A DNA stretch of 8,120 nt from IMG/VR virus record IMGVR_UViG_3300026224_000022; one strand, written 5' to 3'. A model generated the notes under the pieces. That model saw nothing but the letters and a program-made list of their open reading frames with translations. It was not told where the DNA came from and ran no database searches. Below are positions 2,250-7,487 of the stretch, piece by piece. Position 1 is the first letter of the stretch. The number at the start of each line of letters is the position of its first letter. A program made the position numbers and the translations under genes. Source of the DNA: a virus. Lineage: Duplodnaviria > Heunggongvirae > Uroviricota > Caudoviricetes.

Positions 2250-2279
2250 CTCTTGCCATCAAAACTAAGTTAAGTTAGA
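2228..2279. promoter_or_regulatory. OL-like operator repeats downstream of the repressor gene
   Basis: AACTAAG heptamer at 2227..2233 and 2263..2269. Candidate 16-bp sites ACTAAGAAAAGTTTGG (2228..2243) and ACTAAGTTAAGTTAGA (2264..2279) share the left half-site with the OR-side sites. They lie upstream of the first plus-strand gene after the repressor. Confidence 0.45.
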
Positions 2280-2383
2280 TTTTATATCAAAGATAACGAA
2301 CAGGCAGGACGCCCACGAAGTAGCCGCCGGTGGCGTATGAATGACCGGATGATTCGTTAAATACTATGTGTAAGAGAGCGCAA

Positions 2384-3034: not shown

Positions 3035-3129
3035 TTGATTTTCCTTTTATGTATACGGACTTAAAAGGATACCACCGAGCCTGAAGTGGTGAAAAGACAG
3101 GCACATAACAGCTAAGTATTTTCAACCAG

Positions 3130-3450
3130 AGAGAATCCTTAGCGTTGTGGTGAATGCGGCTCAGCGCACGCGGGTTAAGGTTGAGGCTGACAGTCGACCT
3201 TCTGTGGATACCCACCCGCCTGGTGTGCAACCTTCGCCAGGCACCGGGAGGCACCCGGCACCACAACTTTATGCTGTGTGTAGTCCTGGCGGTACCAGCT
3301 TGTACCATTGCTTCCGGCTGGTACCGTCCTTTTTACAAAACAGAGAAGAGCATCACCGGACGACGGGCTCATAACCCAATCCATCCGGGCGGCAGCCACC
3401 GCAGGTGTTCTTCTCTGTTTTGTGGAGAAACCAACCGACCTTGCAGGGTC
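3130..3450 (+). other. GC-rich, hairpin-dense non-coding region (candidate structured RNA or regulatory/terminator cluster)
   Basis: Local GC is much higher than the flanks. ORFs here are Arg/Pro-rich, overlap in all frames and lack SD. Stems: 3218..3225 with 3235..3242 (8 bp); CCGGG/CCCGG 3244..3258; 12-bp stem 3288..3299 with 3317..3328 followed by T5; 13-bp perfect inverted repeat 3337..3349 with 3409..3421. Confidence 0.4.
3288..3334 (+). terminator. Intrinsic-terminator-like hairpin with T-tract
   Basis: GGCGGTACCAGC (3288..3299) pairs with GCTGGTACCGTC (3317..3328), 12 bp with one G-U, 17-nt loop, then C plus TTTTT (3330..3334). Could be a terminator inside the early operon, or the 3' end of a small RNA. 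Confidence 0.5.
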
Positions 3451-3471
3451 GATATGATGAGGAGCAGCAAA

Positions 3472-3834
3472 ATGGCTAGCGAACGCAGTACTGATGTGCA
3501 GGCATTTATCGGGGAGCTGGACGGCGGCGTATTTGAAACCAAAATCGGCGCAGTTCTCAGTGAAGTCGCTTCCGGTGTGATGAACACGAAAACCAAAGGG
3601 AAGGTCTCACTCAACCTGGAAATCGAACCATTTGATGAGAACCGTGTGAAAATCAAACACAAACTCTCATATGTTCGCCCGACTAACCGCGGGAAAATTT
3701 CCGAAGAAGACACCACCGAAACGCCGATGTATGTCAATCGCGGTGGTCGCCTGACTATTCTGCAGGAAGACCAGGGACAATTACTGACTCTTGCCGGTGA
3801 ACCTGACGGAAAACTCCGCGCAGCAGGTCATTAA
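3472..3834 (+). CDS. yfdP: YfdP-like prophage protein, 120 aa
   Basis: ATG at 3472 with GAGGAG (3458..3463) about 8 nt upstream. The track ORF starts at 3154 but its upstream 106 codons run through the GC-rich region and are Arg-rich. The size matches the 120-aa YfdP I recall from K-12 CPS-53, and it sits immediately upstream of a YfdQ-like gene. Confidence 0.75.
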   Translation: MASERSTDVQAFIGELDGGVFETKIGAVLSEVASGVMNTKTKGKVSLNLEIEPFDENRVKIKHKLSYVRPTNRGKISEEDTTETPMYVNRGGRLTILQEDQGQLLTLAGEPDGKLRAAGH

Positions 3835-3899: not shown

Positions 3900-4724
3900 A
3901 TGTCTCAGTACTTAGACGCAACCGCAATTAATCAAATCCAATCCCTTATTTCTGCTCAGGGTGTTAATGAAATTATCAGTAAGATTGGTGCCGATGCTGT
4001 GGCATTGCCTGAGAATTTCCGCATTCATGATCTGGAAAAATTTAATTTAAATCGTTTCCGTTTCCGTGGTTCACTTTCCACTGCCAGCATCGATGACTTT
4101 ACCCGTTATTCTAAAGATCTTGCAGATGAAGGCACCCGCTGCTTTATCGATGCCGATAATATGCGAGCCGTCAGTGTGCTTAACCTGGGTACTATTGATG
4201 AACCAGGTCACGCAGATAACACCGCCACTCTCAAACTGAAAAAGACAGCACCGTTCTCTGCTCTGTTGTCTGTTAATGGCGAGCGTAACTCCCAGAAGTC
4301 ACTGGCAGAATGGATTGAAGACTGGGCCGACTACCTTGTGGGCTTTGATGCTAATGGTGACGCCATTCAGGCAACCAAAGCGGCTGCGGCGATCCGTAAA
4401 ATCACAATTGAAGCGAACCAGACCGCTGATTTTGAAGACAATGACTTCAGCGGCAAACGCTCCCTGATGGAGTCTGTCGAAGCGAAGACCAAAGACATTA
4501 TGCCAGTGGCATTTGAATTTAAATGCGTTCCGTTTGAAGGTCTGAAAGAACGTCCGTTTAAATTACGCCTCAGCATTATCACTGGCGATCGTCCTGTACT
4601 GGTTCTGCGCATTATTCAGCTGGAAGCGGTGCAGGAAGAAATGGCTAACGAATTTCGTGATCTGCTTGTTGAGAAATTCAAAGACAGCAAAGTAGAAACC
4701 TTTATTGGTACTTTCACCGCCTGA
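3900..4724 (+). CDS. yfdQ: YfdQ-like protein, 274 aa (DUF-type prophage protein of unknown function)
   Basis: ATG at 3900 with TGAGGA about 7 nt upstream. Long ORF with good codon usage. Size and position match YfdQ of CPS-53 (recalled, not searched). Confidence 0.85.
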
Positions 4725-4736
4725 TTTCATTACTGC

Positions 4737-4758
4737 AAATGCCCCTGCGGGGGCATTT
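4737..4758 (+). terminator. Hairpin after the yfdQ-like gene (terminator/attenuator candidate)
   Basis: AAATGCCCC (4737..4745) pairs with GGGGCATTT (4750..4758) across a 4-nt loop, 13 nt after the stop codon. The T-run lies within the stem, so this is a weak or bidirectional terminator. Confidence 0.4.
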
Positions 4759-4851
4759 ATGGAAACGTAATTAACTCAATAATCACCGGATGGTGAGGGA
4801 TTCTTTTTAGCAGAATTCAGCGCGGTGCAGCGCATATACGTGGAGAACAAA

Positions 4852-5388
4852 ATGTCATTTATTAAAACTTTTTCCGGGAAGCATTTTTATTATGACAGGA
4901 TAAATAAAGACGACATCGATATTAACGATATCGCGGTTTCCCTTTCAAATATCTGTCGCTTTGCCGGTCATCTTTCGCACTTCTACAGCGTCGCCCAACA
5001 TGCGGTTCTTTGCAGCCAGCTGGTGCCGCAGGAATTTGCTTTTGAAGCGTTAATGCATGATGCAACAGAAGCGTATTGCCAGGACATTCCCGCACCACTG
5101 AAACGCCTTCTTCCTGACTATAAACGGATGGAAGAAAAAATAGACGCCGTAATCCGTGAGAAATACGGGTTACCACCGGTTATGAGTACGCCCGTGAAAT
5201 ATGCCGATCTCATCATGCTGGCAACCGAACGCCGCGATCTCGGGCTTGATGATGGCTCTTTCTGGCCTGTACTGGAAGGTATCCCGGCAACAGAGATGTT
5301 CAACGTGATTCCACTGGCTCCAGGCCATGCCTACGGGATGTTTATGGAACGCTTTAACGAATTATCGGAGTTACGCAAATGCGCATGA
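4852..5388 (+). CDS. yfdR: HD-domain phosphohydrolase, YfdR-like 5'-deoxynucleotidase, 178 aa
   Basis: ATG at 4852 with GGAG (4842..4845) 6 nt upstream; the track start at 4825 is GTG without SD. H...HD signature visible (SVAQHAVL ... ALMHDATEAY). Length 178 aa matches K-12 YfdR, which I recall as a characterised HD-domain 5'-deoxynucleotidase. Confidence 0.85.
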   Translation: MSFIKTFSGKHFYYDRINKDDIDINDIAVSLSNICRFAGHLSHFYSVAQHAVLCSQLVPQEFAFEALMHDATEAYCQDIPAPLKRLLPDYKRMEEKIDAVIREKYGLPPVMSTPVKYADLIMLATERRDLGLDDGSFWPVLEGIPATEMFNVIPLAPGHAYGMFMERFNELSELRKCA

Positions 5389-5741: not shown

Positions 5742-6550
5742 TGACCACATTTACCGATAAAGAACTGATTAAAGAAATCAAAGAACGAATCAGCAGCATG
5801 GACGTGCGAGACAATGTTGAGCGCCGTGCTTATGAAATTGCTCTGGCATCGCTGGAAGAGGATCCGGTGGCATGGCTGCATTCAGACAATGGCTTAGGTA
5901 TTCCGGCAATAACCAGGAGTAAAAACATTGCTGACAGTTGGTTATCAAAGGGCTGGTATGTTCAGCCGCTATATATAGCCAAGCCAGTGCCGGTGGTGCC
6001 AGATGCTCGTCCGTCTTTAAATAATGGCATAGTCGGTTTTGATGAAGGCTGGAACGCCTGCCGCGCTGCCATGCTCTATGGTGCCGTACCTGCAAGCCAG
6101 GCTTACAAGTTGCCACAAACGCAGTTTAAACAGGTTGCTGACCTCTACGAAATGCAATTTGATGACGGTCGCACTTGTGCCTTTCACACTGATGCGCAAA
6201 AGGCTGTGCAATGGCTTCAGGCGTGCGACGGAAACAGGGTTCAGGAATACGTTAAGCTGGAACGATTGCAGAACGCACTGTCTGGCAACTCTCCGGTAAC
6301 TCCGGATGGTTGGGTTATGGTGCCGAAGAGACTAACAGCCGAGAACGGCGCTAAGGGGGCGCTATCCGGTGAATTTTCAGAAACTACGTTTATAAGCTGC
6401 CTGGAATGCTTTGGCGATGATGATTGCGATACCTGTGACGGGAGCGGACGTATTGAAATTAAAGTGCCAGTCACGTGGTCGACCATAAAATCTATCTGGG
6501 ATAAAGGTATCGAGTATTTTGCAGCAAAACCATCACAAGAGGTGAAGTGA
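5741..6550 (+). CDS. Hypothetical protein, 269 aa, with C-terminal CxxC...CxxCxGxG zinc-knuckle motif (full-length counterpart of the YfdT position)
   Basis: ATG at 5741 overlaps the upstream stop (TAATG), with GGAG 4 nt upstream. C-terminal CLECFGDDDCDTCDGSG (nt 6398..6448) is a DnaJ-type CxxCxGxG-like motif with four Cys. The K-12 gene at this position is only 101 aa, so this copy appears intact. Confidence 0.85.
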   Translation: MTTFTDKELIKEIKERISSMDVRDNVERRAYEIALASLEEDPVAWLHSDNGLGIPAITRSKNIADSWLSKGWYVQPLYIAKPVPVVPDARPSLNNGIVGFDEGWNACRAAMLYGAVPASQAYKLPQTQFKQVADLYEMQFDDGRTCAFHTDAQKAVQWLQACDGNRVQEYVKLERLQNALSGNSPVTPDGWVMVPKRLTAENGAKGALSGEFSETTFISCLECFGDDDCDTCDGSGRIEIKVPVTWSTIKSIWDKGIEYFAAKPSQEVK

Positions 6551-7122: not shown

Positions 7123-7158
7123 TTTTCCCGGGTGCAGCCGGTTTTGATGGAGAAAATT

Positions 7159-7440: not shown

Positions 7441-7446
7441 ATAAAA

Positions 7447-7468
7447 AACCCGCCTAAAGGCGGGTTTT
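7447..7468. terminator. Bidirectional rho-independent terminator
   Basis: AAAAAACCCGCC-TAAA-GGCGGGTTTT: 6-bp GC stem CCCGCC/GGCGGG (7449..7454 with 7459..7464) flanked by an A-run and a T-run. Lies between the convergent stops at 7440 (plus) and 7488 (minus). Confidence 0.75.
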
Positions 7469-7487
7469 CAAAAAGCACCAGCTATGA

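Follow-up and report, generated by a model that had tools for sequence, protein, structure and literature searches.

The leader of the PL transcript of phage lambda carries an RNase III processing hairpin upstream of N, and lambda sib is another site of this kind. Anticodon arms of transfer RNAs (tRNAs) are mimicked in messenger RNA (mRNA) leaders, as in the operator of E. coli thrS, and tRNA-like or decoy RNAs are known from phages. In bacterial Y RNAs of the YrlA type, some of which are phage-encoded, a stem formed by the 5' and 3' ends closes a module that mimics the acceptor, D and T parts of a tRNA. Phage HK022, which has no N, carries in its early operon leaders the put sites, cis-encoded and protein-independent RNAs of about 70 nucleotides (nt) that form two hairpins (PMC9378689), and STnc100 and PasD have been described as prophage small RNAs (sRNAs) (bioRxiv 10.64898/2026.05.13.724894). 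Here we analyze an inverted repeat upstream of the gene yfdP in a stretch of 8,120 nt (hereafter the window) from a virus of the Caudoviricetes, IMG/VR record IMGVR_UViG_3300026224_000022, in which a first-pass annotation had noticed two 13-nt arms around a 59-nt core at 3337–3421. The repeat is very probably the closing helix of a conserved plus-strand RNA built as a three-way junction, one arm of which ends in a copy of the initiator-tRNA anticodon hairpin.

The inverted repeat and its fold

The two arms, AAAACAGAGAAGA (3337–3349) and TCTTCTCTGTTTT (3409–3421), are exact reverse complements, as the first-pass annotation had claimed, and the core between them (3350–3408) is indeed rich in G+C (66% vs. 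46% for the window). The original observation is thus confirmed, and it was understated. Perfect complementarity extends over 15 nt (3335–3349 and 3409–3423), a repeat finder returns arms of 25 nt at 84% (3335–3359 and 3399–3423), and in the predicted fold, G-U pairs being counted, the plus-strand RNA forms an uninterrupted helix of 25 base pairs (bp) whose 5' strand, 3330–3354, and 3' strand, 3404–3428, each hold the 13-nt and the 15-nt arm of their side. The last five pairs of this helix, U-G and U-A, join the U-tract UUUUU of an upstream terminator (3330–3334) to GGAGA (3424–3428). Any perfect inverted repeat of 13 nt within 100 nt turned up in only 16 of 1000 dinucleotide shuffles of the window. 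The downstream gene had been named correctly: in RefSeq, the annotation of an E. coli locus with 99.9% identity (L001, 5473–5835) places the coding sequence (CDS) of yfdP on the plus strand at 3472–3834, with its ATG at 3472, as the first gene after the leader. The distance from the second arm to the yfdP Shine-Dalgarno sequence, previously put at 36 nt, is close to our count of about 37 nt to GAGGAG (3459–3464).

Folding of the plus strand between 3330 and 3430 yields −51.0 kcal/mol (z = −8.84, with none of 200 shuffles as good), and the reverse strand folds more weakly, at −45.6 kcal/mol. The same structure is obtained from the longer segments 3280–3480 and 3105–3480 (201 and 376 nt), and in both the minimum free energy (MFE) and the centroid folds of these segments the hairpin of the upstream terminator (3288–3328) remains intact, free of competing pairing. 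The whole element, delimited by the MFE fold, a covariance model and covariation, occupies 3330–3429 of the plus strand and scores 118.5 bits against our covariance model R1. A single unpaired A follows the 5' strand of the closing helix (3355) and another precedes its 3' strand (3403), so that two arms are enclosed. Arm 1 (3356–3388) consists of a covarying stem of 5–7 bp, CCGGACG/CAUCCGG, bearing an invariant apex, its upper part being made of small internal loops, a GGG/CCC stem and the 7-nt loop CUCAUAA. Arm 2 (3389–3402) is predicted as a short hairpin, GCGG-CAGCCA-CCGC, whose length and sequence vary widely among relatives with the pairing kept (helix 3). After the helix the alignment reveals a conserved tail, GGAGAA-AC(C/U)AAC (3424–3435), in which GGAGA is conserved also in variants that lack the upstream U-tract; among 91 variants the tail reads AACUAA in 29 and AACCAA in 23.

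Between the element and the Shine-Dalgarno sequence of yfdP lies a small hairpin, CGACC-UUGCAG-GGUCG (3436–3451, plus strand), with a covarying stem and a conserved loop, (G/U)(U/G)GCAG; TGCAG or GGCAG is found within 45 nt downstream of the element in 78 of the 91 variants. Hairpins with a (G/U)UGCAG loop recur on the plus strand of the window, at 3436–3451, 4821–4834 and 7128–7141, each just ahead of a Shine-Dalgarno sequence, that of yfdP, yfdR and a PrtN-like gene, respectively. Arm 2 contains this loop in 23 of the 91 variants, and TGCAG stands at most 45 nt downstream in 52 of them. This recurrent structure looks like a repeated protein-binding or processing hairpin.

Covariation statistics were computed on alignment A1, which holds 43 distinct copies from early-left operon leaders; alignment A2, obtained from the model search, was excluded because the palindromic helix had also drawn reverse-strand matches. 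In A1, 98.8% of the cells fall into standard pairs (42–52% when the partners are slid), nine pairs have changed on both sides, and the observed covariation score is not attained in any of 500 shuffles. Both arms of the repeat are conserved and covary in related prophages: helix 1 comprises 19 modelled pairs with 99.4% of the cells paired and four pairs changed on both sides. Two-sided changes include A-U/C-G at columns 9/97, G-C/C-G at 14/92, A-U/G-C at 17/89 and G-C/A-U at 31/55. The stem of arm 1 covaries as well, from A-U to G-C at columns 31/55 (18–19 sequences each) and from G-C to A-U at 29/57, and in other types of the element unlike stems occupy the same register (CCUGAUG/CAUCAGG, CUGUCUG/CGGGCAG and UCCAAUCG/CGAUUGGA). 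U-G pairs are found at columns 5/101 and 24/82 in 36–38 of the 43 sequences; since on the opposite strand they would read as A-C mismatches, the functional form is the plus-strand RNA and neither the DNA nor an antisense RNA.

Among 5426 complete E. coli genomes, 2809 carry a 107-nt region covering the element at an identity of at least 95%, most of them in a single place (median 1, at most 5 places). The copy in prophage e14 of strain K-12, 84% identical, lies inside an annotated CDS, ymfH, in a repressed operon. The element was further recovered from phages SfV, SfIV, SfII, ST64B, mEp460, cdtI, 2H10, LLS and phiNP, from Stx2a- and Stx2c-converting phages, and from at least 120 viral contigs in a motif scan. 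A scan of one genome per species located it in at least 15 genera of Enterobacterales (Escherichia, Shigella, Citrobacter, Enterobacter, Kosakonia, Mixta, Buttiauxella, Raoultella, Leclercia, Phytobacter, Pseudescherichia, Pseudocitrobacter, Erwinia, Pantoea and Klebsiella). In the window, no Rfam 15 family covers 3338–3430 at E values up to 1, and at permissive thresholds HK022 and the type B, late-type and non-enteric loci described below likewise yielded no family that covers the element. A dispersed palindromic repeat (REP, ERIC or MITE) was rejected, given the maximum of five places per genome and the location in prophage regions of the matches listed and the loci examined.

A protein-coding origin, as ymfH or a "hypothetical protein", was rejected also: arm 2 differs among relatives by insertions of 1, 2, 3, 4 and about 25 nt, the substitutions in the helices are compensatory, and PGAP itself flags the CDS as frameshifted. 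Coding sequences annotated over the 3' part of the adjacent sRNA, the terminator and the element, namely 3322–3633 in the e14 locus L004 (ymfH) and 5148–5458 in L001 (a frameshifted "hypothetical protein"), are probably spurious, and so is a long in-frame open reading frame (ORF, 3154–3834) that crosses the same three features in the window. According to one report, a retron toxin is triggered when ymfH is over-expressed (bioRxiv 10.1101/2020.06.22.160242); RNA might be responsible for this.

The arm-1 apex and relatives in other settings

Comparison of the different types of the element shows that the unit conserved throughout is the arm-1 apex and not the repeat. The apex, GACGGGCUCAUAACCCAAUCC (3362–3382, plus strand), is invariant in A1, and GACGGGCUCAUAA(C/U)CCAAUCC is kept across types in which all the helices differ. 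Its 14-mer CGGGCUCAUAACCC (3364–3377) equals the anticodon stem-loop of E. coli initiator tRNA (tRNA-fMet) at 14 of 14 nt, and it does so in register, with the three G-C pairs (GGG/CCC) and the loop CUCAUAA in corresponding positions; the tRNA-fMet gene sequence used for the comparison was confirmed as tRNA-Met at 100% identity in all 5426 genomes. Among 28 metagenome matches to the apex motif, 27 sit at a helix tip in the same register. The GGG/CCC stem and the CUCAUAA loop mark bacterial initiator tRNAs generally, which would explain the conservation of the apex across phyla.

The relatives fall into several types according to their setting. Type A, to which the window belongs, lies in an early-left leader and has a long closing helix; of 70 distinct variants of this type, 68 have a helix of 19–25 bp, with a median of 24 bp. 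Type B is found in Klebsiella and Raoultella phages downstream of Q, where the element follows a gene for tRNA-Asn or tRNA-Arg after the spacer GAUAAU; it has U at −1 and G at +1, its closing helix is only GGCCUG/CAGGCC, (A/G)CCA comes next, and a terminator, with no ORF, follows about 100 nt further on. Among the tRNA-type features of its ends are G2-C71, C3-G70 and R73 besides the CCA. The tRNA-sized RNA of type B is unannotated (2509–2580 in both L005 and L006; also in the IMG/VR loci L025, L027, L051, L061, L065 and L090), and in these loci a conserved stretch of about 80 nt and the terminator stand after it. Late types are located between Q and the holin and endolysin genes, often just after a terminator and 100–260 nt ahead of the holin genes, with closing helices of 5–16 bp. 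Simpler hairpin or Y-shaped forms occur in a gut-metagenome phage, before YqaJ and RecT genes, and in a metagenome-assembled genome of Acidobacteriaceae. The element invariably has the orientation of its flanking genes, in type B also that of the tRNA genes. In two complete phage genomes searched with filters off there is one copy per phage, early-left or late, and neither these genomes nor the window (searched with R1) contain a second copy in the manner of nutL and nutR.

Genomic setting, processing and rival explanations

The window is 99.9% identical to a prophage of E. coli UPEC 26-1, and its gene order is that of the SfV, ST64B, e14 and mEp460 type, with the element in the early-left operon leader of a lambdoid prophage. 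The minus strand carries a cro-like gene (ymfT), ymfL and replication genes. On the plus strand the gene of a LexA-type repressor, ymfK (1573–2199), and a small zinc-finger ORF are followed by about 600 nt of non-coding DNA and, past the leader, by yfdP, yfdQ, yfdR, an exonuclease gene and the PrtN-like gene. Operator-like repeats CTAAG-N6-CTTAG are found at 1480–1508 and 1529–1557, in the gap between the repressor and cro-like genes, and at 2257–2285, downstream of the repressor gene, where the repeat overlaps a promoter-like site (2253–2281, plus strand). The latter two are probably OL and PL, and the repeats of the gap probably OR; with PL putatively at 2253–2281, the element would lie about 1 kb into the PL transcript. 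Further downstream, a strong bidirectional terminator hairpin (AAAACCCGCC...GGCGGGTTTT, 7444–7469) separates the PrtN-like gene from the convergent gene of a YafO-type toxin and is the source of several weak matches to Rfam (RNAI, rnk leader, sroH).

An sRNA gene of the STnc100/PasD/sRNA-17 type (3114–3337, plus strand) adjoins the element and lies outside the repeat; it matches Rfam RF02076 over the full length of the model with 42.4 bits (E = 9.9e-07), the gathering score being 47. A second, weak STnc100 match (19.4 bits) is located between yfdQ and yfdR (4716–4895, plus strand). In E. coli K1 RS218, sRNA-17, an RNA of 193 nt mapped by rapid amplification of cDNA ends, occupies the same place in an mEp460-like prophage (PMC7719688), its extent being taken here from the supplementary alignment of that paper. 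We rejected the placement of the element inside the sRNA transcript, as the model match stops at 3337 and the sRNA-17 alignment ends in the same terminator hairpin as in the window. This intrinsic terminator (3288–3334, plus strand), whose arms 3290–3299 and 3317–3326 form a perfect 10-nt inverted repeat (I6) followed by UCCUUUUU, matches the terminator part of the STnc100 model, and its U-tract (3330–3334) doubles as the first five nt of the closing helix. A run of five or more T's marks the 5' edge of the element in 86 of 91 distinct relatives, in which the element stands directly 3' of a terminator.

No plus-strand promoter is predicted between the terminator and the element, which starts at the terminator's own U-tract, and the element would therefore be made only by terminator read-through. 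In the mEp460-like prophage, deletion of sRNA-17 raises yfdP from 0.49 to 47 reads (log2 6.6) and yfdR from 0 to 8.5 reads (PMC7719688, Table 1). These data fit a role of the terminator as the barrier that silences the early-left genes in the lysogen, and they show that the element itself does not block transcription. A mosaic boundary is visible at about 3287, beyond which many phages, among them mEp460, cdtI and Stx2c phages, share the terminator, the element and the start of yfdP at 96–97% and before which the sRNA body differs; as this similarity starts at the terminator, terminator, element and yfdP move as one module. In three IMG/VR loci (L012, L030 and L120) the hairpin usually found behind yfdQ (GCCCCUNCGGGGGCAUUUAUGGAAA; 4741–4775 in the window) directly adjoins the element, an arrangement that corresponds to a clean deletion of yfdP and yfdQ with the leader kept.

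We propose that the element belongs to the plus-strand transcript of the untranslated early-left operon leader (on the cI side, towards xis and int) and that polymerases reading through the sRNA terminator produce it, upon which it would fold on its own. In the early-left copies the helix of 19–25 bp may then serve as an RNase III-type processing and insulating stem, cleavage of which would detach the sRNA and the leader from the yfdP mRNA and present or free the tRNA-sized core. RNase III accommodates about 22 bp of double-stranded RNA (PMC6212723), and the window offers, against the roughly 20–22 bp or more of near-continuous helix that this enzyme calls for, 25 bp without interruption. The RNA side of the first-pass annotation, a long-range stem that could be a processing site, hence survives in its first part, both arms being conserved and covarying; as to its second part, processing is the most plausible job of a 25-bp helix, and we regard a processing or insulating role as a serious possibility that falls somewhat short of being probable.

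The U at −1, G at +1 and RCCA of type B are hallmarks of a substrate of RNase P and 3' trimming. From the copies in tRNA arrays, with their tRNA-type ends, the core would be released by the tRNA-processing enzymes, so that these ends and the long helix of type A may be two routes to the same small RNA. More speculatively, the core would then act, probably in trans, on something that recognizes the anticodon arm of initiator tRNA. Taken as a whole, a tRNA-sized mimic of this arm, set free by RNase III in early-left leaders and by tRNA-processing enzymes in the arrays and working as a decoy or competitor in trans, is a tentative and rather doubtful proposal. As a matter of speculation, its targets could be PIN-domain toxins of the VapC/MvpT family, the P site of the 30S subunit or methionyl-tRNA synthetase. 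VapC/MvpT toxins cut initiator tRNA within the anticodon stem-loop in Shigella and Salmonella; a Leptospira case has also been described (PMC4105405). The presence of one copy per phage ahead of varied genes points to a product or a module and not to an operator of yfdP, and the position of the element next to signals that form 3' ends, be it a terminator or a tRNA, fits the same picture.

Several observations weigh against processing and mimicry. ARAGORN finds no tRNA gene in the window and none at the element in 11 loci, and the Rfam tRNA model misses the element in the window and in the type B loci; a tRNA gene proper, for which a cloverleaf would be required by either program, was rejected on this ground. 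The window does have ACCA at 3430–3433, but CCA follows the helix in only about 27 of the 91 type-A variants. The likeness to tRNA was noticed after the fact, the conserved flanks of the apex (GA...AAUCC) have no counterpart in tRNA-fMet, and the loop of the e14 copy has changed to UUAAUAA. As the helices of the late-leader and tRNA-array copies reach only 5–16 bp, RNase III cleavage cannot be a function of the whole family, and the long helix might simply insulate the folding of the element within a long mRNA. Finally, we found no report of cleavage, of a released RNA or of a binding partner for this element.

An alternative in which the element regulates the first downstream gene in cis, together with the UUGCAG hairpin, would have it govern translation or stability of the yfdP mRNA, whether as a 5' stabilizer, as a ribosome standby site or through base pairing between the CUCAUAA loop and an AUGAG close to the start codon. 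The element ends about 43 nt ahead of the yfdP ATG, and in 89 of 119 related loci a yfdP homologue starts at a similar spacing of about 40 nt; the GGAGA of the tail resembles a Shine-Dalgarno sequence and is conserved, and several yfdP homologues start with AUGAG(U/C), which is complementary to the loop. The link to yfdP, drawn already in the first-pass annotation, therefore holds for the present locus but is not specific: in 29 of the 119 loci another gene follows (RdgC-like, xisE or yfdR), and elsewhere the element stands in tRNA arrays, without any ORF behind it, or ahead of lysis genes at the distances noted for the late types. In the window the annotated start reads AUGGCU, without complementarity to the loop, and no site complementary to the apex over 11 nt or more is present, a single 10-mer at 6310 being judged a chance match. 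We consider regulation in cis unlikely.

Quite unlikely, too, is an antitermination or anti-Rho RNA resembling put, which would modify RNA polymerase or recruit Nus factors through a boxA-like stretch, GCUCAUAAC, and thereby let transcription of the long early-left or late operon proceed past terminators further down. The element does occur in both kinds of leader, early-left and late, in which lambdoid phages place such signals; like put it has two hairpins, and terminator-like hairpins lie downstream (4741–4758 and 4783–4796). The related phage LLS would suit this idea, no N homologue having been found in it and an RNA mechanism being proposed by the authors (PMC12315714). Against it, model R1 has no match in HK022 at E values up to 1, and reading putL and putR alongside the element revealed no relation; each phage holds a single copy, not one for every early operon; Q is encoded by late-type phages anyway; and an element placed past the strong leader terminator cannot explain read-through of that terminator. 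The boxA-like stretch, moreover, is off consensus and buried in a hairpin, the apex GGCUCAUAAC agreeing with boxA CGCUCUUA at 7 of 9 positions in a comparison made by eye only. A lambda-type nut site would combine boxA with a boxB hairpin bound by an N protein; the hairpin downstream of the element has the conserved UUGCAG loop.

Decay of a phage tRNA gene, or a purely structural spacer without specific function, would account for the tRNA-like anticodon hairpin, for type B with its CCA ends within tRNA arrays and for the decayed loop of e14, and is nevertheless very improbable. All three helices are maintained by compensatory changes, the apex stays the same from one context or phylum to the next, and more than half of the complete E. 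coli genomes carry the element; covariation, invariance and prevalence together are unlike the behaviour of a pseudogene. Hardly credible, finally, are the two remaining suggestions of the first-pass annotation, a terminator/antiterminator switch and a DNA-level site (distant half-sites of a dimeric protein, or a cruciform), which have the perfect 15-bp arms and the real terminator immediately upstream in their favour, but fail because the 3' flank of the helix, GGAGAAACCAACC, has no U-run, no plus-strand terminator is called within 3330–3440, no alternative pairing with the terminator is predicted, the arm sequences differ among relatives with the pairing and its strand-specific U-G pairs conserved, and the operator-like CTAAG-N6-CTTAG repeats of the phage are of other sequence and lie elsewhere.

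Returning to the three-way-junction RNA with its possible processing stem and mimic, the element is common, being carried by prophages of over half of the complete E. coli genomes, by the serotype-converting Shigella phages SfII, SfIV and SfV, by ST64B of Salmonella, by Stx2a- and Stx2c-converting phages and by phages of Klebsiella, but annotation either misses it or takes it for a CDS. It offers something tangible to test in lambdoid phages of a group in which early-left regulation, with a strong terminator ahead of xis/int and yfdPQR, is poorly understood. Phenotypes assigned to ymfH, or to deletions of sRNA-17, may involve the element or the adjacent terminator. An exact copy, across phyla, of the initiator-tRNA anticodon hairpin is unusual and points to a new RNA mimic or a new processing signal; were the mimic real, it would be an RNA-based device of counter-defence or translation control.

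Comparison with known systems

The nearest neighbours of the element are STnc100, PasD and sRNA-17, in the literal sense that the sRNA terminator and the element travel together across phages with differing sRNA bodies; the sRNA, however, ends at the terminator, and the repeat and its core lie outside it. With the lambda RNase III hairpin the element shares a long, near-perfect helix located on the early-left transcript, in the untranslated leader before the first gene, that forms only once transcription has gone beyond an upstream signal. The two are unrelated in sequence, and the helix of the element differs in closing a three-way junction with an invariant tRNA-like apex, in that its cleavage is so far an inference, and in having short-helix relatives that cannot be substrates of RNase III. 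The put RNAs of HK022, which suppress terminators by binding the zinc-binding domain of the RNA polymerase beta' subunit, are likewise two-hairpin RNAs in an early leader of a lambdoid phage. The element, by contrast, is present in one copy per phage, past the leader terminator and at a distance of about 1 kb from the putative PL, and possesses a closing helix that put lacks.

As to tRNA mimics, the element resembles the thrS type in being a leader hairpin that copies the anticodon stem-loop of one particular tRNA, here tRNA-fMet, but it is phage-borne, occurs in two different transcription units and has tRNA-type ends in some phages. In common with YrlA it has a long stem, formed by its ends, that closes a mimic of part of a tRNA. 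The part copied is the anticodon arm, however, and the neighbours are phage genes, with no gene for rsr/Ro60 in the neighbourhood; for this reason, and with 3338–3430 unmatched in Rfam as described above, a bacterial Y RNA was rejected. The literature searched contained nothing relevant on a mimic of initiator tRNA or a tRNA-like RNA in lambdoid phages, its coverage being incomplete and an earlier description possible. Leader processing hairpins and tRNA mimics are already known kinds of RNA, whereas a three-way junction that carries a copy of the initiator anticodon is new to Rfam 15.

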